From assembly GCA_045653445.1 (NCBI GenBank), contig JAZOLY010000005.1:1229-65228 (forward strand): 64,000 bases of DNA, written 5' to 3'. Origin of the DNA: Acutalibacteraceae bacterium. GTDB taxonomy: Bacteria; Bacillota; Clostridia; Oscillospirales; Acutalibacteraceae. Made by a program: the position numbers and the translations under genes. Shown in pieces: positions 10,530 to 62,143 of the stretch. Every line of letters begins with the position of its first letter. Within the stretch, counting starts at the first letter, position 1. Below the pieces are notes generated by a model. It did no database searches, had not been told where the DNA came from, and worked only from the letters and a program-made list of their open reading frames with translations.

Positions 10530-11498
10530 TTAGATAGATATAGTGTCAGCAATAGCGTGAAGGGTGTATTCATACTCTTTCTTTTCATTGAGAGCTTCAA
10601 ATATGTCCTTATTAACAATTTCGTCTTTAACAAGACACATAACGCGATTGCCGATTCCTTCTGCGAGCAAATCAACAGCCTTGTGACCCATAGCACTTGC
10701 AGTTACACGATCACGAACTGTGGGTGAACCGCCGCGCTGAACGTGACCAAGGATAGTTGCGCGAGCTTCAATATTGCAAACACGAGAAATCTTTTCAGCA
10801 ATGCCGTCAACATTACCAACACCCTCAGCAACAACAACTATGAAGTGCTTCTTGCCCATAAGCTGAGTTTTCTTGATTCTATCAACAACGTCGCGTTGGA
10901 AATCATAATTAACTTCAGGAACTAACACAGCAGTGGCACCAACAGCAATGCCGGTATGAAGAGCCATATAGCCAGCTCTTCGACCCATAACCTCTACAAC
11001 AGTGCAACGGTCATGAGACTGAGCAGTGTCGCGGAGCTTGTCAACCATTTCCATAGCAGTATTAACAGCGGTATCAAAACCGATGGTATAATCGGTAGAA
11101 GAAATATCGTTGTCAATCGTACCCGGGATGCCAACACAAGGAATACCACGTTCTGAAAGGTCACGTGCACCTCTGTAGGAGCCGTCACCACCAATTACAA
11201 CAATACCTTCTATTCCGTTCTTTTTGCAGTTAGCAATAGCAATCTGCAAGCCTTCCTCGGTTTTAAATTCAGGACAACGGGCTGTGTAAAGAATAGTACC
11301 GCCACGATGAATAATATCTGAAACTGAGCGCAAGTTCAAATCGATAATATCGTTTTCGATAAGTCCGGTATAACCACGCATTACGCCCTTTACGTTCATA
11401 CCTTTTTCAATAGCAGTACGAACAACAGCGCGAACAGCTGCATTCATTCCGGGTGAGTCGCCGCCGCTGGTCAGAACACCAATAGTCTTAATACTCAT
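10530..11498 (-). CDS. pfkA: ATP-dependent 6-phosphofructokinase
   Basis: IGVLTSGGDSPGMNAAVRAVVR, VVIGGDGSYRGA and PGTIDNDI motifs. 322 aa. Confidence 0.95.
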   Translation of the reverse strand: MSIKTIGVLTSGGDSPGMNAAVRAVVRTAIEKGMNVKGVMRGYTGLIENDIIDLNLRSVSDIIHRGGTILYTARCPEFKTEEGLQIAIANCKKNGIEGIVVIGGDGSYRGARDLSERGIPCVGIPGTIDNDISSTDYTIGFDTAVNTAMEMVDKLRDTAQSHDRCTVVEVMGRRAGYMALHTGIAVGATAVLVPEVNYDFQRDVVDRIKKTQLMGKKHFIVVVAEGVGNVDGIAEKISRVCNIEARATILGHVQRGGSPTVRDRVTASAMGHKAVDLLAEGIGNRVMCLVKDEIVNKDIFEALNEKKEYEYTLHAIADTISI

Positions 11499-11538
11499 TA
11501 TAAAAACACCTCGTGTTAAAGTAAAATGTTATCAATTT

Positions 11539-11567
11539 ACTATAATATGAAAAACATAAATTGTCAA
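11539..11567 (-). promoter_or_regulatory. sigma-A type promoter of pfkA
   Basis: Minus strand reads TTGACA, 17 nt spacer, TATAGT. Confidence 0.6.
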
Positions 11568-11589
11568 TCAAATGATACGATAATCCATA

Positions 11590-14500
11590 CTAATGCAACA
11601 ATTTTATATTCAATTTGCCGACAATATTTGCAAGTTCATCAAGTAGGGGCTGATTAACTGACACGCGCATATAATCAGGTGCTTTAAGCCTCTTCCCTGT
11701 TGATTTGTCAAGCAAATAAACATCAGTTTTTCCTTCAAATATTGAAAGTAATGACTTAACTCTTTTAAAACGCTCATCAATCATATTTTCAACCGTAATA
11801 AGAAGCGCGTTTTCAACATTTGAACTGTCATCTTTTTCAGGAATGTTTTGTGCGATTTCAGCGCTGAAAACAACAACCTCTGCAGGTCTGTCATCGTCGC
11901 AAGAAACAGTTCCTCTTATAACAATGGTTGCACCATGTTTTATAATATGACCGAATTTAACCAAGGCATTAGTAAATATAATCGCATTTATTGAGCCTGT
12001 GCAATCCTCAACAGATGCAGTTGCCATTTGTTTGCCGTTCTTAGTAGTTCGCAGTTTAAAAGACGTAACCTGAGCAACAAGAGTAACCGATTTATCATTA
12101 TAATTTACATTCAAATCATCAGAAACAATGTTTGAAATATCGGTTGCTTTTATCTTTTTGGCTAAGCCGTTATATGCCGTTACGGGATGTTCAGAAACAT
12201 AAAAGCCTACGCTTTCACGCTCATACTGTAGTCGTATGTCGCGAGGATAGTCAGCTAAAATCGGCAAAGATGAATCATCATTTATATCAAAGTTATTTTC
12301 ATCAAAAAGTCCAATCTGACCGGACATTTTACGATTAGATTTATTTGAGCAAGCCAACAGCACACTTTCAACCGATTCAAAATATCTTCGTCTGTTATTG
12401 TCAACAGAATCAAAAGCACCCGCCAAAATCAATGATTCAAGGGCGCGCTTGTTGATTTCGCAGTTATTCAATCGTGTACAAAAATCGTGCAAACCTTTAT
12501 AGTCACCGTTACGACGGCGTTCTGCAACAATTCTGTCAATAAGATTATTACCTAAATTACGAACGGTTAGCAATCCAACTCTAACTGCGTTTCCTTCCAC
12601 TGTAAAGCCTGCATCTGATCTGTTAATATCGGTAGGTAATATTCTTACGCCCATACGTTTACACTCGCCAACATATTGAGTGGTTTTATCCGTAGAATCC
12701 AAAACGCTTGAAATAAGCGCCGCCATATACTCAGCTTTATAGTGACACTTTAAATATGCAGTCTGAAATGCAATGTGAGCATATGCTGCAGCGTGGGATT
12801 TGTTGAATGCATAGGATGCAAAAGACATCATTTCATCAAAAATTTCACTTGCAGTTTTTTCATCAACGCCCTTTTTAAGTGCACCGCAACACTCATCGTC
12901 GCCATAGATAAAGCTGTTGCGCTCATTTTCAAGAACATCATGCTTCTTTTTAGCCATAGCACGACGAACAATATCTGCCCTGCCCAATGAATAACCCGCA
13001 AGGGTGCGGAAAACCTGCATAACCTGTTCCTGATACACAAGCACGCCAAAGGTAACGCCAAGGATAGACTCAAGCAAAGGCGTCTTATATTCTATTTTTG
13101 ATTTAAATCTGTTTTCAATATATTGAGGAATACTTTTAACAGGACCCGGTCGGTATAAGGAAGTAACCGCAATTAAATCTTCTATTCTATCAGGCTTTAA
13201 TTGTGAAAGAACCTTTTTGATACCTGCGGATTCAAACTGAAAAACGCCGTCAGTTCTACCTGCTGAAAACATTCTAAAGGTGTCTTTATCATCTAACGGG
13301 ATGTTATTTATATCAAAATCAGGCGTATGCTTTCTTATAAGCTCTTGTGCATTATCGATAACCGTAAGATTTCTAAGACCAAGGAAGTCCATTTTAAGCA
13401 ATCCAAGTTGCTCAATAGCGGTCATAGTATACTGAGTAACTATGGATTCATCACTTTTGGCAAGAGGAACGTAATCAGACACTGCATCGCGGGTAATAAC
13501 AACTGCAGCTGCGTGCTTTGATATATTTCTTGGCATACCTTCTATTCGCCTTGCAAAATTGATTATATTTTTTGCATTTGAATTTTGATAATACAGCTGC
13601 TTTAATTCGTTTGATTCTTCGAGTGCTTCGTCAAGGGTAATATTAAACACACGAGGTATAAGTTTTGCTATGTTATCACCCTCAGCGTAAGGCAATCCAA
13701 GCGCGCGTGTAACGTCTCTGATTGCAGCTCTTGCAGCCATTGTATCAAACGTTATAATCTGAGAAACTCGTTCTGCACCGTATTTTTGAACAACGTAATC
13801 AATTACCTCTTGCCTTCTGTCACGGCAAAAATCAATGTCAAAGTCAGGCATTGTTACACGCTCAGGGTTTAAAAAACGCTCAAACAAAAGATTGTATTTT
13901 ATTGGGTCAATATCAGTTATCCCCATACAGTAGGCACACAAACTGCCGGCGCCGCTACCTCTTCCGGGACCAACTGGGATTCCTGATTTTTTAGCGTAGT
14001 TAACAAAATCGGCAACAATTAAAAAGTAGTCCACAAAGCCCATTTGACTTATAACAGAAATTTCATATTCAAGCCTTTCAGTTAAACTTGTGTTAATATG
14101 AGCATAACGTTTTTCAAGTCCGTCCTTACAAAGCTTTGTAAAGTAATCCAAATGGTCTTGATCACCAATATCAAAATGAGGCAATATTGTTTTGCCAAAC
14201 TCAAATTCAAAATTGCATTTGTCGGCAATTTTTTGGCTGTTCTCAATCGCTTCTGGAATATCGGCAAACAGCTCAGCCATTTCACTTTCACTCTTTAAAT
14301 AAAACTCCTCTGTTTCAAATGCAATTCCGTCTGTATCGTCAACACTTTTACCTGTGTTTATCGCCAAAAGGACATTTTGCGTTTCACTGTCATCTTTATT
14401 AACGTAGTGAACGTCATTTGTAGCCACAACGGGAATATCTGCATCTGCAGACAACTTTTTTAGCAAGGGTAATATTCGCAATTCTTCTTTATAATAATGG

Positions 14501-53149: not shown

Positions 53150-54139
53150 TTACTTTTCTTTATAAAAAAGATCAACAACTAAACTTTCAACTGAATTCGG
53201 ATTGGGATAAAATTCAATGAATTTTTCACCCATTTTAGATTCACCGTCAATATTTTTTATACCTTTAAACTCGTAAGAATCAAATTTTTCTGCAAGTTCT
53301 TGCAATCGGGTAACCGAACGGTCGGATTCAATATAGTCAGCAAGCTTTAACGACATATCTACGATAAAATCATCATCTTTTTCGATACAATCGTGCAACT
53401 TTTTATAAAGTGCATTTATATACTGTTGCTGACGTTTCATTCGGGTACTGTTAGTATTATCGTCAAGTCCGTATCTTGTACGCACGTAATGAAGAGCCTG
53501 CTCACCCATAAGTGTAACAGTTTCGCCTTTGACCAACGTATCGTCTATACCTGTAAAGTCCTCAAGAACTTCAACCTGCACACCGCCAACCATATCGTTA
53601 ACGATAGTAACAGAATCAAGAGACAGCGAAATGTAATGATTTACCTTTACACCAAGTAATAAATCAGATACAGCCTCAGCGGTATTACGACAACTTACAC
53701 CCTTACCGTTTCCGTAAGTATGGGCTAAAGCAATTTGCTTTTGAACAGTATCAATCTTATCTCCTGCGACACCTAAAACATTAACATTAGCCATTGTATC
53801 GCGGTTTATGTGGATTGCCGACAATTCCTTTTTAGAGTTATCAAAGACAAACAGCATTAAAAAGTCAGCCAGTTTATCGTTGTTGTACGAATCGCCTTTA
53901 GATTGACCTTCCGCCTTATCAAGCCCCAAAACCAAAAATGTTTCGACGTTTTTATTAGGAAGATACTCTTTTCCGTCATAAAATAGGGTTTCATCGCTAA
54001 CGTCATATGCAGGCTTTCTGCTTCGTTGTTCATCCCAAATTTGCAAAAGGCATAAACTTCCAGCCACGAGAAAAACAACTAAAAGCGCAATAATCCCATA
54101 TTTAAAAATATTGTGTTTACCTTTTTGTGCCTTTCTCAT
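53150..54139 (-). CDS. LytR-CpsA-Psr (LCP) family protein
   Basis: N-terminal TM helix and the LCP core FLVLGLDKAEG...DFLMLFVFDN...AIHINRDT. Confidence 0.88.
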   Translation of the reverse strand: MRKAQKGKHNIFKYGIIALLVVFLVAGSLCLLQIWDEQRSRKPAYDVSDETLFYDGKEYLPNKNVETFLVLGLDKAEGQSKGDSYNNDKLADFLMLFVFDNSKKELSAIHINRDTMANVNVLGVAGDKIDTVQKQIALAHTYGNGKGVSCRNTAEAVSDLLLGVKVNHYISLSLDSVTIVNDMVGGVQVEVLEDFTGIDDTLVKGETVTLMGEQALHYVRTRYGLDDNTNSTRMKRQQQYINALYKKLHDCIEKDDDFIVDMSLKLADYIESDRSVTRLQELAEKFDSYEFKGIKNIDGESKMGEKFIEFYPNPNSVESLVVDLFYKEK

Positions 54140-54164
54140 AAAAATCTATCTCTTTTCGTAAAAA

Positions 54165-54815
54165 TTAAGCCTTAACTTTTCTTGAAAGATATACAAAAGC
54201 TGCACCTGACATTGCCATAATTACCAAGCAAACGGTAACAACGCCACTGTCAGAAGTTTCGGGAGAAGATGTGGTACCCTTTGAATTAACTACGATAGCA
54301 TAAGGAACCATACCCTTTTCGGTAAATACAAGGTGTGTGCCGTTGTTAGTAACCTTAGTGTCTTCAACTACAACCCACTTGCCATCAATGAAGCAAAGCA
54401 AAGCAACAAAATTCTTAAGTGTATCAGCGCCAAGAGTGATATCAAAATTACCGTGGTCGCAGTGACCGGGGTGATCAGTAACGCTAAGATTAAAAATGTC
54501 GCTTACTGCAAGGTTAGAGGGATCGGTAGTCATCTTAGAAAGCTCACTGTTAAGCTTGGTAAGGTCTGTTGTGCCTTGAATCGTTGCTGTTGCCTGTTCA
54601 AGAATAGTGCGGGCTGCGTCATCCAATGTAGTTCTGTTAGCGTAAGAAGTTACAATAACAGTACAATTGCAATTAGCGTTGCTGTTTTCAGACTCGACTA
54701 CAGTGGGAGCCTGATTAGCAGATGGGCTGGAGACAAAAGCACCTGCAGCAAATGCGGTAACACTCATACACATTACCAACACGAGAGACATAACAATTGA
54801 AAATACCTTTTTCAT
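54165..54815 (-). CDS. secreted hypothetical protein with C-terminal sorting-signal-like anchor
   Basis: Signal peptide ending TAFA-AG. The C-terminus is SPETSD, then a hydrophobic helix, then an SRKVKA basic tail. Confidence 0.6.
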   Translation of the reverse strand: MKKVFSIVMSLVLVMCMSVTAFAAGAFVSSPSANQAPTVVESENSNANCNCTVIVTSYANRTTLDDAARTILEQATATIQGTTDLTKLNSELSKMTTDPSNLAVSDIFNLSVTDHPGHCDHGNFDITLGADTLKNFVALLCFIDGKWVVVEDTKVTNNGTHLVFTEKGMVPYAIVVNSKGTTSSPETSDSGVVTVCLVIMAMSGAAFVYLSRKVKA

Positions 54816-54847
54816 TCTAAATTCATCCTTTCATGAATTAAAGTTAT

Positions 54848-55537
54848 TTATTTGTCGAGTTGGGCATAACCAAACTCGTTCATTTGACTAACAAAATCAG
54901 CGCCAAGTTTTTTTGCAATATAATCAGCAGCGCTTTTAATTTTAGGCGGCCTTGAGGTCATATTATGGCAATCAGAACCAACAAAATGAATCATACCGTC
55001 AGCTAATTGTTTAATAGCCTTTCGCTTGGAAAGACCTAAAAGATAGCTTGCGTTTACCTGCATTAAAATGCCTTCATCAAGTAGTCTGTACCAAATTTCT
55101 TTGCTTTGCAGCGGCATATATCTTTCAATATGCGCCAGCATCACGTTAATCTTTTTTGAACTTGCAAGCTCTGCCAGCTCGCGAACGGTGTATTCGGTCC
55201 ATTGAGATATTGGCATTTCAAGCAAAAGCGAATTTGTTCCTTGAATCTTAAGTTTCTCCAATCCCTCCAACCTGCTGATTCCGGGGTAATACTTCACCTC
55301 AGCACCAAGCAGTATCTTCGGAAGTCCGCTTGAATACTGCTCGACCAAGCGGTCATAGGATTGCTGACGACGTTCAATAAAATTCGAAACCGATTCGTCG
55401 TTTGCGATAAAGTGAGGAGTAGCAGCAACAACATCAACGCCTTGACTGACTAGCTCCGACAAAATGGACAAACTTTCAGACACGCATTGACTTCCGTCAT
55501 CTATACCAGGAAGAAGGTGACTGTGCCAATCTATCAT
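54848..55537 (-). CDS. PHP-family protein-tyrosine phosphatase (CpsB/Wzh/YwqE type)
   Basis: MIDWHSHLLPGIDDGS, ATPH and SDCH metal-binding motifs. Confidence 0.9.
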   Translation of the reverse strand: MIDWHSHLLPGIDDGSQCVSESLSILSELVSQGVDVVAATPHFIANDESVSNFIERRQQSYDRLVEQYSSGLPKILLGAEVKYYPGISRLEGLEKLKIQGTNSLLLEMPISQWTEYTVRELAELASSKKINVMLAHIERYMPLQSKEIWYRLLDEGILMQVNASYLLGLSKRKAIKQLADGMIHFVGSDCHNMTSRPPKIKSAADYIAKKLGADFVSQMNEFGYAQLDK

Positions 55538-56313
55538 TTCTCATCCTCGCCATTATCAGATTTATAATACCTGTAGTACTTATAATATCGATATTTCTTA
55601 TACTTGCCGTAGGAACCGTTGCCCGACTTAGTTTCGTTCATTACGCAACCAAAAACGTTAACGTTTGAAAGGTTAAGTTGGCGAATGCAACGTTCAAGCT
55701 CCTTCTTCTCGGTATAATCCTCGCGAATAACAACAATCATGCCGGTAATCAAGCTTGCAATAGACAGTGCATCCGAAACAATATTAACGGGAGGCAAATC
55801 GATTACAATGTAATCAAACGCTTCCTTAAGCTCGTTTAAAACCGTTTCCATTCTGCGAGAACCAAGCAATTCGGAAGGATTGGGTGGAATTTCACCTGCA
55901 GGAAGAATAAACCAGGTTTTTAGTAAATCGGATTGAAAACCCGATATATTTGCGCCTTTTCCCATAAGTAAGTCTGTAAGACCGGGAGAGCCTGCAATTT
56001 TCATCTTTTTAGCAACCGACGGTATACGAAGGTCACCATCAATAAGCAACACCTTGCTGCCCTTTTCTGCAAGAACGTATGAAAGATTTACTGCAGTGGT
56101 GCTTTTACCTTCACCTCTCATTGAACTTGTAACGCCGATGATTGGGCATTTCTCACCCTCAGGAACGGTAAAGTCCAGATTGGTACGTAACAATTTATAT
56201 TGCTCAGTTGCAGTAAACTCAAGATTTTTGTGCAGTGTTTTTTGGTCTTCGCTAATACTGAAAGACGACTGCCTGCGTTTGCTTTTTTTATTTAACAATC
56301 CCATTTTTATCAC
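55534..56313 (-). CDS. BY-kinase catalytic subunit (CpsD/Wze/CapB type tyrosine kinase)
   Basis: Walker A GEGKSTTAVNL, Walker A' LLIDGDLR and Walker B IVIDLPP. The C-terminal tyrosine cluster is YGKYKKYRYYKYYRYY. Confidence 0.92.
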   Translation of the reverse strand: MIKMGLLNKKSKRRQSSFSISEDQKTLHKNLEFTATEQYKLLRTNLDFTVPEGEKCPIIGVTSSMRGEGKSTTAVNLSYVLAEKGSKVLLIDGDLRIPSVAKKMKIAGSPGLTDLLMGKGANISGFQSDLLKTWFILPAGEIPPNPSELLGSRRMETVLNELKEAFDYIVIDLPPVNIVSDALSIASLITGMIVVIREDYTEKKELERCIRQLNLSNVNVFGCVMNETKSGNGSYGKYKKYRYYKYYRYYKSDNGEDEK

Positions 56314-56322
56314 CGTCTTTCA

Positions 56323-57087
56323 TCAATCTTTGGTTTTTCGCTTGCTTTGATAATAATATCCATAACTACCTGAACTTGTACCTAAAAGGTTTGGAACATT
56401 TGCCAAGATAGGATAGTTATAGGTATTGAGCACGTATTCTTCATCGTGGATGGTATCATCCATAATCGCAGCAATTACAATAGCGATAATCGATATCAAT
56501 GCGCCAAGTATCAAACCAACCGCCGTATATCTGGTAACGCTTGGAGCAACCTTGTCTCCGTTTGGAATGGCGTAGTCAACAACCTCCATTGTTGCGCCTT
56601 CGATAATATCGTTGATTCTGTCAGGCAATACCTCTGCGATGCAGTTGGCTATTTTTGAGGCTTCCTTTGGATCCTCAGCCGTAACTGTAACACGCATAAT
56701 TTCTGTATCGTTAGAAGGCTCAACTTCAAGCATATCAAAAAGCTCTTTATAATCATATGAAACGTTAGCTTTATCGATAACCAAGTTGAGCGTGGTTCTG
56801 TTCATCAGTATCTCTCTGTATGTTTTAACCAAACTTTGTGCAGCGGTAATTTCAGATGAACTAATGCTAAAGCTTGTATTACCTAATGAAAAAGAACTGT
56901 TATTTACGTACAGCATAACAGAAGATGAATAAGTAGGAGCAATTAAAAACACTGCAACCGAAAAACCTATAACAGCAGCCAGAAAGCTTGATATTCCAAC
57001 AATCCAAACTCTTTGCCATAAAAATTTAAAGATGTGCAACAAATCAATCGTGTAATACTCCTTCAAATTAGTGTCTTGTTTAGCCAT
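56323..57087 (-). CDS. Wzz/CpsC-type chain-length determinant / kinase transmembrane modulator
   Basis: Two TM helices flank a periplasmic-type loop. Wzz pattern (IDLLHIFKFLWQR...). Start chosen at MAKQD behind RBS GGGGAG. Confidence 0.85.
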   Translation of the reverse strand: MAKQDTNLKEYYTIDLLHIFKFLWQRVWIVGISSFLAAVIGFSVAVFLIAPTYSSSVMLYVNNSSFSLGNTSFSISSSEITAAQSLVKTYREILMNRTTLNLVIDKANVSYDYKELFDMLEVEPSNDTEIMRVTVTAEDPKEASKIANCIAEVLPDRINDIIEGATMEVVDYAIPNGDKVAPSVTRYTAVGLILGALISIIAIVIAAIMDDTIHDEEYVLNTYNYPILANVPNLLGTSSGSYGYYYQSKRKTKD

Positions 57088-57191
57088 AAATCGAGTTCTC
57101 CCCTTCAAAATTGTATGATAAATATCAAATCACATAGTTACCCTATTTATACAAAGTAGATTATAGCACAACTCTGTAAATGTGAAGAAAT

Positions 57192-57235
57192 ATATCTTTA
57201 TTGCAGATATATTTTAATATCTTTATTACGGATAT
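57192..57235 (+). promoter_or_regulatory. two copies of an ATATC-N9-GATAT inverted repeat (putative XRE operator) in the promoter region
   Basis: ATATCTTTATTGCAGATAT (57192-57210) and ATATCTTTATTACGGATAT (57217-57235) are 25 nt apart. They sit just upstream of CATAAT and of the XRE gene RBS. Confidence 0.55.
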
Positions 57236-57261
57236 TGCATAATGTATAAGAGGTGATTGTT

Positions 57262-57477
57262 TTGCAGTTCAAAAATTTAAGAAGCATACGTGAAGATAAT
57301 GATATTAAACAGAAGGAAATCGCGGCATATTTAAACGTTTCTCAAAACACTTATTCCCAATATGAAACAGGTGTAATATCTATTACAGCCGAAGTTCTAA
57401 TAAAGCTTGCAGATTATTACAAGGTCAGTATTGACTATCTGCTTGACAGAACTAACAACAAAAAAACAAACAAGTGA
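57262..57477 (+). CDS. XRE-family HTH transcriptional regulator (~71 aa)
   Basis: LRSIREDNDIKQKEIAAYLNVSQNTYSQYETG...LIKLADYYKVSIDYLLDRT is a canonical HTH_3 pattern. TTG start behind RBS AAGAGGTGA. Confidence 0.85.
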   Translation: MQFKNLRSIREDNDIKQKEIAAYLNVSQNTYSQYETGVISITAEVLIKLADYYKVSIDYLLDRTNNKKTNK

Positions 57478-57487
57478 GGTTAAAGTT

Positions 57488-59704
57488 ATGGAATACATCT
57501 GTCTTATAATTGGATTACTTATTCTGCTCACTTCCCTATTAGTAGCAATTAAGAAAAGATTTGATAGCAGCATTATGATTTCAGCTATTATGCTGGGTGT
57601 CTTCTTTTCGACCTTTTTTATGGTACTTCCTACAGAATGGTCAAGCCCCGATAAATCAGTATTTGACCCCACCTTTCACAGAATAGTGTCCTCTCTTTTA
57701 TACAGCTTTAAGACTCTTGGCGGAAGACAGGACATCGCTCAGCTTGAATCTATCAACCTTTCGGGTTGGGTAAAGGGTCTATATATCTATGTTAACTACA
57801 TATCATTTGACCTTGCTCCCATACTGGCTTCAGGATTGATATTATCCTTTATTGGCGATACAGGCGACAAAATGCGATATTTTCTTAGTTTTTCACCTAA
57901 GTGTTATGTTTTTTCTGACATTAACGAAAATTCTCTTGCACTGGCAAAAGGAATCAAGCAGTTGCCCGGTAAAAAGACGTTGGTTTTTTGCAATGAAAAG
58001 GAAGCCGACAAAGCTATGGCATCGCAAGCAAAAGAATTGGGCGCCATCTTACTTTACAAGCTGTGCAAAGACGTTAAAATCACTCCTCGATTCAAGCAAT
58101 ACGAATTTTTTATTATTTCAGATAACGAAGACGTCAATATAGAATTAACTGAGTTGCTGATCGATAAAAAGGACAGGTTCGTTAAAAGCAACATAACCAT
58201 CAACACCTTTGCTCAAAGCGGAACTAACATAAACATGTTGGAACAAAGCATGAAAAAAAGCCCTTGTGTTGCATTTGACGGTCTTACAGAAAAAACATTT
58301 GATGAAGCACAAGCCGTTTTAAAGAAAAAGCCAAGCACTAAAGTTGCATTTTTCAACACTGCACACGCAGATAACGAATTATTAGAAAAAGCCGCAGAGA
58401 AAAATCTTCTTACCTTTAATAAGCCTTGGAACAAGGAAAAAGTCAGCAATGATTTTTACGGATACGATATTACGTTATATCTTGAATCATCCGATAACGG
58501 TTTTGATACAACCGGCATAAAATGCTACAAAAACAAGCTGACTGATAAATGGTTTGATGATCCGTTAAAGGTCAGGTTTATTGATGAAATTGCACTGTTT
58601 TGCAACAATCTTTTATATGAGCACCCCTTATACAATCTGCCAGATAACAAAAAAGACATTTCGGTTATGATAGTCGGCTGTGGCAAACTGGGTATGCGTA
58701 TGCTCAAAACAGTAGTATGGAACGGTCAAATTGAGGGATATACTCTTAAAATCTGCATATATGATAAAAACGCGAAGGATGCGAAACAAAAACTGTATCA
58801 TCAATGTCCCGAACTTAACCAATACAGTTTAAACTTTATCGATGTAGATATTGAAAGTGCTGAATTTGATAAAAAAATATCCGAAAACAGTCTTGATGCA
58901 ACCTTTGTTTGCGTTGCATCAGGCTCTGACGACTTAAATATTACAACTGCTGAAAATCTGTACAGAATTTTCAGACAGCAAACATTTGGATACACTCCCC
59001 CCATTTTTACTCGCATAAGAAAAATTGTAAAATCTGAAAATTACAATAAAAAGGATTCCTATCTGTACGATAGAAACATTCATTTGTTCGGCACAACAGA
59101 ATCTATCTATTCAAACAATACTCTGTTTAACAGCAAGCTTGAAAAGTTGGCTCTTGCGATTCATCTGTGCTACTCATCTGCACTTGATAAACCATATGAC
59201 AGTTACGAATTTAAGCAGGCACTCCACTCCTTCTTCTGCTCCGAGTATAACAGACGTTCATCAATGGCAACAGCACTGCATATTGCTTCAAAGCTGGTAA
59301 GCTGCAATGTTATGAAAAGCACACAAACACAGCCCACCGAAGCAGACTTGGAAAAGTTCAGTAAAATACTTGATGACGATTTGCTTGAAATAATGATAAA
59401 GAACGAGCATGACCGTTGGAATGCCTTTGTAAGAAGCGAAGGATATATTTGCGCAGATGTAAAGACGGTATGTAAATACGCCGAAGAAAACAATTCTCAC
59501 AAAGACGAAATATCAAAACTTCACCCTTGTATTTTAAGTTGGGAAGACTTGTCTAAATTCCAAAAAGATTATGATGAGATTTTAGTCAAAAAACATGGTC
59601 TAAAAAAGCAAAACTTCAAAGACTATGACAAGGATATTATAAAGAAAATTCCAGAAATAGTTAGAAAAGCCAATCAATTATGTGAGGAGAATGTCTATGT
59701 ATAA
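57488..59704 (+). CDS. membrane-anchored protein: 3-4 N-terminal TM helices, degenerate plus canonical Rossmann (KTN/TrkA-N-like) domains, two RyR-like C-terminal modules (738 aa)
   Basis: Start is the ATG at 57488 behind RBS TGAGG, 11 nt after the XRE stop. The hydrophobic helices include ICLIIGLLILLTSLLVAI, IMISAIMLGVFFSTFFMVL and LAPILASGLILSFI. The dinucleotide fingerprint is VMIVGCGKLG...ICIYDKN. The C-terminus reads LALAIHLCY...EYNRRSSMATALHIASKL and NEHDRWNAFVRSEGY...LHPCILSWEDLS...KDYD. Confidence 0.7.
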   Translation: MEYICLIIGLLILLTSLLVAIKKRFDSSIMISAIMLGVFFSTFFMVLPTEWSSPDKSVFDPTFHRIVSSLLYSFKTLGGRQDIAQLESINLSGWVKGLYIYVNYISFDLAPILASGLILSFIGDTGDKMRYFLSFSPKCYVFSDINENSLALAKGIKQLPGKKTLVFCNEKEADKAMASQAKELGAILLYKLCKDVKITPRFKQYEFFIISDNEDVNIELTELLIDKKDRFVKSNITINTFAQSGTNINMLEQSMKKSPCVAFDGLTEKTFDEAQAVLKKKPSTKVAFFNTAHADNELLEKAAEKNLLTFNKPWNKEKVSNDFYGYDITLYLESSDNGFDTTGIKCYKNKLTDKWFDDPLKVRFIDEIALFCNNLLYEHPLYNLPDNKKDISVMIVGCGKLGMRMLKTVVWNGQIEGYTLKICIYDKNAKDAKQKLYHQCPELNQYSLNFIDVDIESAEFDKKISENSLDATFVCVASGSDDLNITTAENLYRIFRQQTFGYTPPIFTRIRKIVKSENYNKKDSYLYDRNIHLFGTTESIYSNNTLFNSKLEKLALAIHLCYSSALDKPYDSYEFKQALHSFFCSEYNRRSSMATALHIASKLVSCNVMKSTQTQPTEADLEKFSKILDDDLLEIMIKNEHDRWNAFVRSEGYICADVKTVCKYAEENNSHKDEISKLHPCILSWEDLSKFQKDYDEILVKKHGLKKQNFKDYDKDIIKKIPEIVRKANQLCEENVYV

Positions 59705-59972
59705 ACCAACGCCTGTTGATACAAGCAACATAAAGCTTCCACCCGAACTAATTGAACTGACTGAAAAAATAGCCGAAAACGTTCACGACGTTTGGGCGCA
59801 AGGAAGAATAAAAGATGGTTGGACTTACGGTCCTGTACGTGATGATGACAAAAAGCAAACGCCCTGTTTAGTCCCCTATTGCGACCTGACAGAAACAGAA
59901 AAAGAATACGACAGAAAGACAGCACTGGAAACCATAAAATTGATTCTGTCTTTAGGTTATGAAATAAAATAA
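59697..59972 (+). CDS. stand-alone RyR (ryanodine-receptor repeat, PF02026-like) domain protein (91 aa)
   Basis: AENVHDVWAQGRIKDGWTYGPVRDDDKKQTPCLVPYCDLTETEKEYDRKTALETIKLILSLGYEI follows the RyR-domain consensus closely. RBS GAGGAG. The ATG overlaps the upstream stop (ATGTATAA). Confidence 0.8.
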   Translation: MYKPTPVDTSNIKLPPELIELTEKIAENVHDVWAQGRIKDGWTYGPVRDDDKKQTPCLVPYCDLTETEKEYDRKTALETIKLILSLGYEIK

Positions 59973-59979
59973 CATAAAA

Positions 59980-60013
59980 ACCTCTTTGCATATTGTAATG
60001 CAAAGAGGTTTTT
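59980..60013 (+). terminator. terminator of the XRE-RyR operon
   Basis: ACCTCTTTGCA / TGCAAAGAGGT stem plus T5. Confidence 0.88.
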
Positions 60014-60193
60014 AATTACGCATTATTCTCAGCAATTATTTCCACTCTAATAATTTTAATAAACTTAACAACAACTTTTGTTATTAAAGCAAATACAAAA
60101 GAAAAACACAACATTCTTTTTAGGTAAAAACAACAGTACAGGCTGTCGATTTTGGTCATTATTTATAATTTTTATTGTGTAACAAATATTTTT

Positions 60194-60254: not shown

Positions 60255-60893
60255 ATGCCAGCAACAACAGCTTTTAAATATGAAACCAAAAGGAAAAATT
60301 TATTCCTTCGTGTTGTAAAAGGACATTTTGCAACAACAAACCGTCATTGCAACTATTATATTGATGTTGCCGCCCAAAAATCAAGATTGTCAGAGGCTAA
60401 GGCGGTAGCTGAAGAATTACGTTCTTACCTCTACCACTCAACAGTTGTTGACACTATTTTGTGCCTTGACGGAACTGAGGTTATAGGAACTTGTCTTGCC
60501 GAGCAGCTTACAAAATCCGATTTTATCAATATGAATGCCCATAAAACAATTTATGTTGTTACTCCTGAAACAAACAACGGGCAAATTATATTCAGAGACA
60601 ATATTGTGCCAATGATACAGGGCAAAAGTGTGCTTGTGCTTGGTGTGTCTGTTTCTTCAGGCAAAACAGTCGAAACCGCTGTGGATGCAATTAACTATTA
60701 CGGTGGCAGAGCTGCAGGAGTATGTGCAATATTCTCTACTGTTGAAAAATGCGGTGAATTGCCAGTCTATTCAGTATTTAACCCCAACGATCTTGACGGA
60801 TATGATAACTATCCATCCCACGAATGTCCACTGTGTAAAGCAGGACAGAAACTTGATGCGCTAATCAATTGTCATGGATTTTCTAAGTTATAA
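60255..60893 (+). CDS. type I phosphoribosyltransferase-fold protein with degenerate PRPP loop and C-terminal CxxC
   Basis: RBS AAGGAGG. The PRPP-loop-like segment is SVLVLGVSVSSGKTVE. The usual acidic pair (DD/ED) is replaced by GV. The C-terminus contains HECPLCKAG. Confidence 0.6.
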   Translation: MPATTAFKYETKRKNLFLRVVKGHFATTNRHCNYYIDVAAQKSRLSEAKAVAEELRSYLYHSTVVDTILCLDGTEVIGTCLAEQLTKSDFINMNAHKTIYVVTPETNNGQIIFRDNIVPMIQGKSVLVLGVSVSSGKTVETAVDAINYYGGRAAGVCAIFSTVEKCGELPVYSVFNPNDLDGYDNYPSHECPLCKAGQKLDALINCHGFSKL

Positions 60894-61004: not shown

Positions 61005-61433
61005 TCAAAACCTCAGCCACCCAATAGAGCCAAGAAACAAATCCAACAACAAAGCCCCCAACAATAACCCACTTAAAACACAAACTGCTATTATCAAAAT
61101 CTTTTTATCTCTTTTAAGTGACTGTATATGTTCCACTGAGGATTGCTTTATGTCCTTTATTCGTTCTTCATAAACTTCTTTCAATGCTTTCAGAGCTTTT
61201 ATCTGAGAATCTTCACTTATTTCAACATTTTCAACTTTTTCAATTGCATTTATTTTATCCAACGAACCACCCATAGCACTAACAAGTCTGACTACAGTTT
61301 CAAAACGAGGGTCAGCCGTTTCACCTGAAAAAATTTTTCTTATTGTAGCTTCTGGCAAACCGCTGGCGGTAGAAATATCGTGCCATGAAAAGTTACCGTT
61401 TGTTTTAAGGTATTTTAAATATTCTTTTATCAA
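61005..61433 (-). CDS. membrane-anchored HTH protein (XRE-like N-terminus, coiled-coil, C-terminal TM helix)
   Basis: FSWHDISTASGLPEATIRKIFSGETADPRFETVVRLVSAMGGSL is HTH-like. The C-terminus ILIIAVCVLSGLLLGALLLDLFLG is hydrophobic. Confidence 0.6.
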   Translation of the reverse strand: MIKEYLKYLKTNGNFSWHDISTASGLPEATIRKIFSGETADPRFETVVRLVSAMGGSLDKINAIEKVENVEISEDSQIKALKALKEVYEERIKDIKQSSVEHIQSLKRDKKILIIAVCVLSGLLLGALLLDLFLGSIGWLRF

Positions 61434-61954: not shown

Positions 61955-62143
61955 TTAAACATTTACATCTACATACTTTTCTTTTCCGTTATAACCATCG
62001 AGTTTATCACGATTGGTATATTGCCAAAATACCCACTCTCTATCATCCGACAATTTTGGCATTGAAATAACGTTTCTAATCCAAATGTCGTATTCTTCAT
62101 AATCATTTGAATATGTAGTCACACTGGTTTCAAAAAGAACCTT
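61955..62143 (-). pseudogene. C-terminal remnant of a GH25 muramidase (lysozyme/endolysin)
   Basis: My own translation is ...YDIWIRNVISMPKLSDDREWVFWQYTNRDKLDGYNGKEKYVDVNV, ending in a stop. This matches the GH25 C-terminal pattern W.FWQY...G.V.GI.G.VD.N. The frame is closed by TGA at 62144-62146 with no start codon. Confidence 0.55.

Follow-up and report, generated by a model that had tools for sequence, protein, structure and literature searches.

What does a bacterium do with a protein that consists of a single ryanodine receptor (RyR) repeat, and why would its gene be translationally coupled to that of a large membrane protein without a family name? The question is raised by a stretch of 64,000 nucleotides from an Acutalibacteraceae bacterium (Bacillota; Clostridia; Oscillospirales; assembly GCA_045653445.1, contig JAZOLY010000005.1, positions 1,229 to 65,228 of the forward strand), which we refer to in its full 64-kb length as the window. 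Region 57262-59972 of the window holds three co-directional open reading frames (ORFs) on the plus strand: an XRE-type regulator gene (gene 1), a gene for a 738-aa membrane protein (gene 2; BIG) and a gene for a 91-aa stand-alone RyR-domain protein (gene 3). On balance, we think it rather likely that genes 2 and 3 supply the receptor and effector of a Thoeris-like TIR nucleotide-signalling system in gut Clostridia (Oscillospirales and their relatives). From its sequences and gene neighborhoods, we describe the family as a putative TIR-based (Thoeris-like) signalling system in which the membrane effector and an accessory protein each carry a RyR domain.

The conserved unit at this locus is a pair of genes. 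BIG (57488..59704, +), delimited by its reading frame, an AlphaFold2 (AF2) model and its family of homologues, is followed by gene 3 (59697..59972, +), identified by PF02026, and the start of gene 3 overlaps the stop of BIG (ATGTATAA), an arrangement of translational coupling. By single-protein look-ups and one species-representative genome scan, we collected 39 distinct loci with a close BIG homologue (31-84% identity); L-numbers below are labels of compared loci. The small RyR gene lies directly 3' of BIG in 34 of these 39, overlapping it or at most ~110 nt away, and the genes that flank the pair vary widely from locus to locus. Conservation of the gene 2-gene 3 pair across genomes had been set beforehand as a test, and the pair is conserved. 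The same does not hold for the three-gene triad of the first-pass annotation: phmmer found the XRE gene in none of 48 compared loci, and it was later seen solely in L049, the closest relative (84% identity), which shares the cps-XRE-gene 2-gene 3 synteny of the window. As the XRE gene is limited to the window and L049, we take the pair, not the triad, as the conserved unit, and the regulator was dropped as a component of the system. Within the pair, the small protein is the more constant partner, with 64-78% identity across 30 loci vs 31-61% for BIG over the same loci. The small gene is missing in 5 related loci and 1 distant locus that retain BIG and TIR.

The link to TIR signalling comes from the neighborhood of the pair. 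In 26-27 of the 39 loci, the pair has a TIR-domain gene no more than 1.2 kb away. This gene is on the same strand except in L023 and L032, which have it in convergent orientation, and in most cases it overlaps or is separated by less than 100 nt; in several loci a single FtsK-, TPR- or asparaginase-like gene intervenes. The linkage is operonic in about two thirds of the loci. Pfam confirmed TIR_2/TIR in all linked proteins checked. Their architectures are diverse: TIR alone (~330 aa), or TIR with 12-24 MORN repeats, TPR/Sel1, BspA-type leucine-rich repeats (LRR), an FtsK-like ATPase or a methyltransferase. Four loci (L016, L029, L030, L039) carry two or three TIR genes each. The catalytic Glu column is invariant in 15 of these TIRs aligned with Bacillus cereus ThsB and a type VI TIR, and some linked TIRs match the PADLOC ThsB models weakly (best 6.8e-10). 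The association reaches beyond the closest relatives, since a 30%-identical BIG homologue also precedes a TIR gene (1047 aa). A conflict role had been called plausible before any of these neighbors were seen; the TIR linkage strengthens that view, and the function itself stays a prediction from genes and their order.

Gene 3 encodes a canonical RyR domain, as the first-pass annotation had recognised: the protein covers PF02026 from model position 1 to 90 of 91, a full-length match with an E-value of 8.9e-38 and 128.9 bits (cutoff 27.4). For the same protein, PADLOC returned 0 families and NCBIfam one unrelated match at chance level, well under its curated cutoff. The candidate pocket residues are H30, W33, R48, T55 and D72; all but T55 are invariant among the small proteins, and position 55 is His in 2 of 31 homologues.

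The function of such pockets has recently been addressed in phages. Two 2026 preprints (PMC13232231; 10.64898/2026.06.04.730250) report that phage RyR domains bind or cleave TIR-made gcADPR signals (2'/3'-cyclic ADP-ribose (cADPR), cADPR), so that the earlier statement that bacterial and phage RyR proteins have no assigned function has been overtaken for the phage proteins. RyDEP (DyoEdafos gp78) employs a dyad of H75 and D117, its W78 stacks on the adenine, and its H100 lies at the phosphates (PMC13232231); other phage RyR homologues bind these signals, at nanomolar affinity, without cleavage (PMC13232231). Pectobacterium phage CB1 gp68 ('RyR Tad') sponges 1''-3' gcADPR with a dissociation constant of 43 nM, and also binds 1''-2' gcADPR and cADPR (10.64898/2026.06.04.730250). 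In animals, the Repeat12 (R12) domain of RyR binds adenine nucleotides and dantrolene in a homologous pocket (PMC13232231). Neither preprint treats host-encoded RyR proteins (PMC13232231; 10.64898/2026.06.04.730250). When RyDEP is aligned with gene 3, H75/W78/H100/D117 fall on H30/W33/T55/D72 with identical spacing, and three of the four residues are kept.

RyDEP and RyR Tad are the sole RyR-domain proteins outside animal channels that we found with a demonstrated biochemical function. They share with gene 3 the PF02026 domain, a pocket of His-x-x-Trp plus Asp, and the format of a small stand-alone protein. They differ in being phage-encoded, whereas gene 3 lies on the host chromosome in translational coupling with BIG, and in sequence: identity to gene 3 is 32-46% over partial lengths, and gene 3 has Thr for the phosphate-binding His. 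Unlike these phage proteins, gene 3 likely acts inside a signalling system, not against one. The closest match lies elsewhere. Gene 3 aligns without gaps to RyR2 862-949 (repeat 1; e.g., PDB 8dty_A) with 45/88 identical residues (51%), which is closer than any phage RyR protein found, and it also matches three other RyR repeats. R12 and gene 3 are each tied to a membrane protein associated with cation flux, putatively so for BIG. Unlike gene 3, a single 91-aa repeat on a separate polypeptide, the animal repeats stand in tandem within a 5000-aa channel, and the RyR pore is unrelated in sequence to the three-helix membrane domain of BIG. A small stand-alone RyR protein of Bacteroides thetaiotaomicron (PDB 3NRT/4N05) matches gene 3 with a phmmer E-value of 1e-32; its entry name records no function.

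A second RyR-related element resides in BIG itself. Its C-terminus is an all-helical domain (aa 548-705; 59129..59602, +), delimited by AF2 and profile comparison, that includes a canonical RyR-like repeat (aa 628-696; 59369..59575, +) with H641, W644 and H679. By hhalign this repeat matches the small-RyR profile with a probability of 91.8% and an E-value of 7.5e-7, and a profile of the C-terminal 199 aa, compared with PDB sequences, retrieved RyR entries alone above noise (best E 4.7e-7). RyDEP H75/W78/H100/D117 align with BIG H641/W644/H679/D696. The first three of these BIG residues show little or no variation, even in homologues of 22-46% identity, and the D696 position is mostly Asn across the family. 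PF02026 has no match in the window BIG at E<=0.1, and weak ones in 3 of 38 distant homologues (best 2e-3).

At the level of structure, the similarity is fainter. Modelled alone, the C-terminal domain is one compact helical domain (pLDDT 91.9). Foldseek returned no significant match in the PDB, with RyR1 at TMq 0.38 over 193 columns and others at <=0.21; the top BFVD matches are phage RyR-domain proteins (probability 0.75-0.87, E 0.4-0.9). Two RyR-like modules had been proposed in this region. The second, aa 628-696, stands; the first, aa 550-605, was set aside as a RyR repeat, as its hhalign match spans 10 residues and is non-significant, and we describe it as a degenerate helical module. Given the RyR1 match of the predicted model over 193 columns, this segment too may be a RyR repeat.

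The remainder of BIG combines a membrane part with two alpha/beta domains, in agreement with the first description of gene 2 as a membrane-anchored protein with Rossmann-like domains. BIG has no match in Pfam, NCBIfam or PADLOC. Its 141 close homologues are all labelled 'hypothetical' and derive from metagenome-assembled genomes (MAGs) of gut Clostridia/Oscillospirales; the wider family counts 2096 representatives of 50%-identity clusters at E<1e-3, 230 of them below 1e-30. The AF2 model, built with 33 homologues, has a pLDDT of 85.8 and a pTM of 0.79. Hydropathy, the model and conservation place three transmembrane (TM) helices (~3-21, 29-47, 94-122) in aa 1-123 (57488..57856, +); the TM segments are thus real, and they number three, not the three to four first counted. 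Two strongly conserved motifs, LPTEW and LYSFKxLGGRQDIxQLE, lie in the external loop, and this N-terminal region is the putative effector or pore part. Next, at aa 135-260 (57890..58267, +), comes a first Rossmann-like alpha/beta domain, which has no glycine-rich loop and was recognised by its beta-alpha pattern in AF2 and by alignment. A second, at aa 385-535 (58640..59092, +), has by alignment an intact dinucleotide fingerprint, VGCGKLG...IYDKN, as the first-pass annotation had read it: G397, G399, G402 and D426 are invariant in 33 close homologues, as is N484. An insert of ~100 aa is present in a longer subfamily of BIG proteins only.

This layout invites comparison with the RCK/KTN K+ channels and regulators (MthK, BK/Slo, TrkA/KtrA), in which TM segments are likewise followed by two Rossmann-like domains and a GxGxxG...D site. 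Unlike them, the window BIG showed neither TrkA_N nor a K+ filter. TrkA_N (PF02254) gave no match there, with Sacchrp_dh_NADP alone at E 0.077; it matches 7 of 38 distant homologues (best E 1.2e-6) and one close homologue (P0053). A specific RCK identity for the second Rossmann domain was rejected, since its profile gave weak E1/ThiF-type GxGxxG matches only against PDB sequences; by sequence, it reads as a generic dinucleotide-binding fold. Whole BIG does match hSlo1 (BK/Slo) and other K+ channels in Foldseek with a probability of 1.0 over 660-720 columns, and BK/Slo K+ channels, with their tandem RCK gating rings, are the sole high-probability matches that include the membrane part, but TMq is just 0.27-0.34 and the root-mean-square deviation about 19-21 Å. 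The KTN/TrkA-N assignment first given to gene 2 is therefore not retained: the window protein lacks a Pfam match, and what remains are weak matches of distant homologues and low-TM Foldseek similarity. BIG was also tried as a pore-loop K+ channel. It has no K+ selectivity filter of the T-V-G-Y-G type, its conserved external loop reading LYSFKxLGGRQD; Pfam channel families gave nothing on the TM regions of three homologues even at E<=10; and hhalign, in a weak test, found no similarity between the BIG family profile and MthK. We dropped this candidate and keep the Foldseek result as a loose architectural analogy.

Taken together, these features suggest a mechanism. A TIR protein, triggered by infection or otherwise, would make a cyclic ADP-ribose-type signal from NAD+. 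This signal would be bound in the RyR pocket of BIG (H641/W644/H679), possibly with a contribution from the Rossmann GxGxxG site, and binding would switch the N-terminal three-helix domain, which may resemble a channel that has a tandem-Rossmann 'gating ring' on its cytoplasmic side. Ions would leak or the membrane would be damaged, and growth would stop. The co-translated small RyR protein would bind the same signal and serve either as a co-receptor subunit or as a built-in buffer/glycosidase that sets the activation threshold. We weighed these two roles on its co-translation, its extreme conservation, its His/Asp dyad and its absence from five close loci and one distant locus. A threshold buffer or hydrolase seems slightly more likely than an obligatory receptor subunit, because its His/Asp dyad is that of the RyDEP glycosidase and because some loci do without the protein.

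The window copy differs from most of its relatives in its partners. No TIR ORF is present anywhere in the 64-kb window, and the module is predicted to sit behind an autoregulated XRE repressor. Given both features, the window copy would be an orphan effector that relies on a TIR gene in another part of the genome, or else it would sense ADP-ribose (ADPR)-type metabolites on its own.

How close is the proposed arrangement to known Thoeris systems (types I-XI; a ThsB TIR plus a signal-activated effector)? As in Thoeris, one or more TIR genes, often several and variable, stand beside a constant non-TIR gene, and the TIRs linked to BIG retain the catalytic Glu. In several types, the constant partner joins a nucleotide-binding domain to TM segments, as described in the text and tables of a 2025 survey: Macro-TM in type II, DUF6650-TM in type VI, SLATT in type VII, and ion-channel effectors in type X (10.64898/2025.12.03.692087). 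That survey distinguishes 29 Thoeris configurations; within its text and the table entries compared here, ryanodine receptors appear in the Discussion only, as animal cADPR targets, and neither RyR/PF02026 nor a BIG-like protein is among the effectors (10.64898/2025.12.03.692087). Unlike Thoeris, the loci described here have an extra small RyR protein, their TIRs are mostly large repeat or ATPase fusions, the window copy lacks a TIR, and BIG has no known defence phenotype. BIG was also compared with the type X ion-channel effector (ThsK) and rejected as one: hhalign gave a probability of 0.1% against a 246-aa TM protein of a B. cereus locus. The type X effector (223-246 aa) was picked by adjacency to a type X TIR homologue, not by IMG id.

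Several observations weigh against a Thoeris-like role. Each functional step of the model is read from sequence and models. Gene 3 has T55 where RyDEP has the phosphate-binding His, and whether it cleaves the signal is not predictable from sequence, because most phage RyR homologues assayed bind without cleaving (PMC13232231). The RyR fold in BIG is weakly supported at the structure level (Foldseek E>0.3, TM<=0.38). BIG resembles channels little (TM ~0.3); it lacks a K+-filter motif, and its sequence matches neither MthK nor a Pfam channel family. PADLOC and NCBIfam recognise neither BIG nor the small RyR protein as a known family. About one third of the related loci, and the window copy, have no adjacent TIR gene. 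The five Pfam-annotated loci are flanked not by known defence genes but by housekeeping and sporulation genes (SASP, SpoVA, SpoIIR, SipL, tRNA synthetases, FeoB), the position of the locus is partly syntenic among related genera, and the small RyR protein is unusually conserved. These last features, the housekeeping flanks, the partial synteny and the conservation, fit core physiological signalling as well as, or better than, fast-evolving defence.

They lend weight to a rival explanation, a physiological, non-immune second-messenger channel: a ligand-gated ion or osmolyte channel of the Oscillospirales core genome, with a tandem-Rossmann 'gating ring' and a RyR nucleotide sensor, that would respond to NAD+/ADPR-type metabolites or a TIR-made messenger and act in ion homeostasis, sporulation or germination, the TIR-repeat proteins being developmental or environmental sensors. 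The housekeeping and sporulation flanks, the partial synteny across genera and the strong purifying selection on the small protein (64-78% identity) argue for it, and so do the intact GxGxxG...D site in BIG, the BK-like Foldseek similarity, and the third of loci that lack a TIR. Yet the variable TIR fusions (LRR, TPR, MORN, and an FtsK-type ATPase resembling SspH/mad8/HerA), together with multiple paralogues, follow the pattern of immune sensors; phages deploy RyR-domain proteins specifically against Thoeris (PMC13232231; 10.64898/2026.06.04.730250); and no transporter or channel family is detectable in BIG by sequence. We regard this physiological channel as a serious possibility, though an unlikely one. 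We favor defence because of the immune-receptor-like diversity of TIR fusions, the multiple TIR copies per locus and the use of RyR proteins by phages against Thoeris.

The relation between the two proteins of the pair bears on two further explanations. The model first put forward for this operon had the small RyR protein dock onto the RyR module of BIG as a pseudo-dimer, within a TIR-independent, NAD(H)/ATP-gated KTN sensor silenced by the XRE protein. Translational coupling of genes 2 and 3, conservation of the pair, and the presence in BIG of only one statistically supported repeat are what such docking would predict, and RyR repeats and phage/bacterial RyR proteins do dimerise (PMC13232231; 10.64898/2026.06.04.730250). 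However, the C-terminal 199 aa of BIG form one compact domain (pLDDT 91.9) that aligns with RyR1 over 193 columns, which suggests, from the model, that BIG already holds two modules in cis. Five close loci and one distant locus also have BIG and TIR but no small protein, the XRE gene lies outside the conserved unit, and the KTN assignment does not hold for the window BIG; we therefore judge this version improbable. In the other explanation, the small protein, as a RyDEP/RyR-Tad-like sponge or glycosidase, would be a counter-defence or self-protection factor on a mobile element that neutralises Thoeris signals, with BIG as unrelated cargo. The RyDEP domain and conserved dyad in gene 3 speak for this, as do the RyR-domain proteins encoded in 211 phage records. 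Set against it are the absence of phage or mobile-element genes around the operon, both in the window and in its relatives, a chromosomal setting among cps and housekeeping genes, and the tight, almost invariable coupling of gene 3 to BIG. Moreover, true phage homologues of gene 3 are merely 32-50% identical to it over partial lengths, and the nearest 'phage' records (about 59% identity) are mislabelled bacterial contigs, as judged from the one examined, with its FecR and ECF-sigma genes. We consider it very improbable that the small protein is such a factor.

The records in question are two human-faeces contigs that GenBank lists as 'UNVERIFIED Bacteriophage sp.' (L051, MT836850.1; L057, MT837259.1), whose RyR protein is 58-60% identical to gene 3. 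L051 is most likely a mislabelled bacterial contig, because it carries FecR and ECF-sigma genes. We had considered close phage-borne homologues of gene 3 as a sign of an arms race, and discarded the idea on finding that they sit on unannotated faecal contigs, L051 being bacterial.

If the Thoeris-like reading is correct, a large unannotated family (>2000 50%-identity clusters, mostly from gut Clostridia) would join bacterial TIR/Thoeris-type signalling, and the anti-Thoeris RyR proteins of phages would be explained as captured host receptors. Should the small protein prove to be a signal buffer or off-switch, it would be a host-encoded one within a Thoeris-type system; to our knowledge, no such element is known in Thoeris. 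A bolder form of the hypothesis, which we regard as doubtful, holds that BIG is a cADPR-gated membrane channel whose RyR domain is the native receptor of a TIR signal, that the RyR sponges and glycosidases of phages are captured copies of it, that R12 is a direct cADPR site, and that an axis from TIR through cADPR and RyR to cation flux predates animals. It has long been disputed whether ryanodine receptors are a target of cyclic ADP-ribose and, if so, at which site. The small soluble protein, a 51%-identical homologue of RyR repeat 1 linked genetically to cADPR-type synthases and a membrane protein, would offer a tractable model; its use in studying how cADPR acts on RyR follows from its being R12-like and wired to both.

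The operon itself is laid out as first described, with three genes, an overlap between genes 2 and 3, operator repeats and a terminator all present in the sequence. Gene 1 (57262..57477, +) encodes a 71-aa XRE/Cro-C1-type helix-turn-helix (HTH) regulator (HTH_3, E 2.2e-17, 63 bits) with weak matches to the defence-associated HTH models HTH_VI, RmrA and capH. We place its start at TTG 57262, which is well spaced from an AGAGGTG ribosome binding site and agrees with the start called for the 71-aa orthologue in L049; the longest ORF would begin at GTG 57253. BIG starts 10 nt past the stop of the XRE gene.

Upstream lie two direct 19-nt operator-like repeats, ATATCTTTATTRCRGATAT (57192..57210 and 57217..57235, +), detected by a repeat search and by their conservation in L049. 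The copies, ATATCTTTATTGCAGATAT and ATATCTTTATTACGGATAT, are each an imperfect palindrome, and their start-to-start spacing is 25 nt. L049 keeps both repeats 5' of the XRE gene, and the flank further upstream has diverged; the repeats are probable XRE binding sites. A sigma-70-like promoter, TTAATA-18-CATAAT (57214..57243, +; consensus scan, 9/12 matches), overlaps them. Promoter-like sites in the region show no excess over shuffled sequence, and it is position that singles out the one at 57214-57243. The operon ends at an intrinsic terminator (59975..60014), found by a hairpin scan, whose 17-bp hairpin lies between A and T runs and is therefore bidirectional. The AT-richness ascribed to the operon by eye is real, with 36.3% GC vs 39.4% for the window, and marginal: the value lies at the 9th percentile of same-size windows. 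With a deviation of merely ~1.3 standard deviations, the operon was rejected as a compositional island.

On its upstream side, the operon borders a block of intact capsule/exopolysaccharide regulatory ORFs (53150-57108, -): LytR_cpsA_psr, a CpsB phosphatase, a CpsD-like ATPase and Wzz. The neighboring cps regulatory genes have good Pfam matches and cannot be called a decayed locus, as had been suggested. On the downstream side, a 212-aa phosphoribosyltransferase-like protein (60255-60893, +) matches orotate-PRTase-type models, all well under their cutoffs. Its gene has its own promoter-like site 3' of the terminator and is probably outside the operon; L049 has a 212-aa gene at the matching position, with an extra phosphodiesterase-family gene in between. 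Divergent from the operon, 61005-61433 (-) encodes another XRE-type HTH protein, of 142 aa, which has a hydrophobic helix at its C-terminus and is apparently a membrane-anchored regulator. Beyond it, the lysozyme remnant named by the first-pass annotation is a 55-aa ORF (61955-62122, -) that covers the C-terminal end only of glycoside hydrolase family 25, with an E-value of 2e-4 that falls under the Pfam cutoff.

Neighborhoods in other genomes add further detail. An opposite-strand block stands beside the BIG-RyR(-TIR) operon in L007 (8264-11704, -), L003 (8259-10561, -) and 14 other loci. It contains a metallophosphoesterase (16 loci; PrpA/ApaH/Pnkp-like), an ADP-ribosylglycohydrolase (5 loci), a 459-506-aa protein without a family match, a 151-aa HAD_SAK_2 protein and an uncharacterised 150-aa protein. 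We counted the ADP-ribosylglycohydrolase and metallophosphoesterase neighbors toward TIR signalling because they are ADPR-related; the block could be a module for signal turnover or RNA repair, or plain synteny. In L015 (2512-4471) and L022 (4612-6574), a 333-336-aa TIR protein and then a 314-316-aa protein with an asparaginase N-terminal domain are encoded directly 5' of BIG, the latter being a third type of partner.

Among distant members of the family, L053 (499-10728) and L054 carry tandem BIG paralogues (634 and 628 aa) in a cluster of Ser/Thr kinase, FHA and AAA+ genes that also includes a histidine-kinase-like ATPase and a LytTR response regulator; as this kinase cluster is without a TIR, the wider BIG family appears to be used in other signalling contexts as well. 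In L046, from an Eggerthellaceae MAG, a 512-aa fusion of a protein-kinase-like and a RyR domain (11271-12809, +) adjoins a distant BIG homologue (23% identity), and a TIR-LRR protein is encoded 3 kb upstream.

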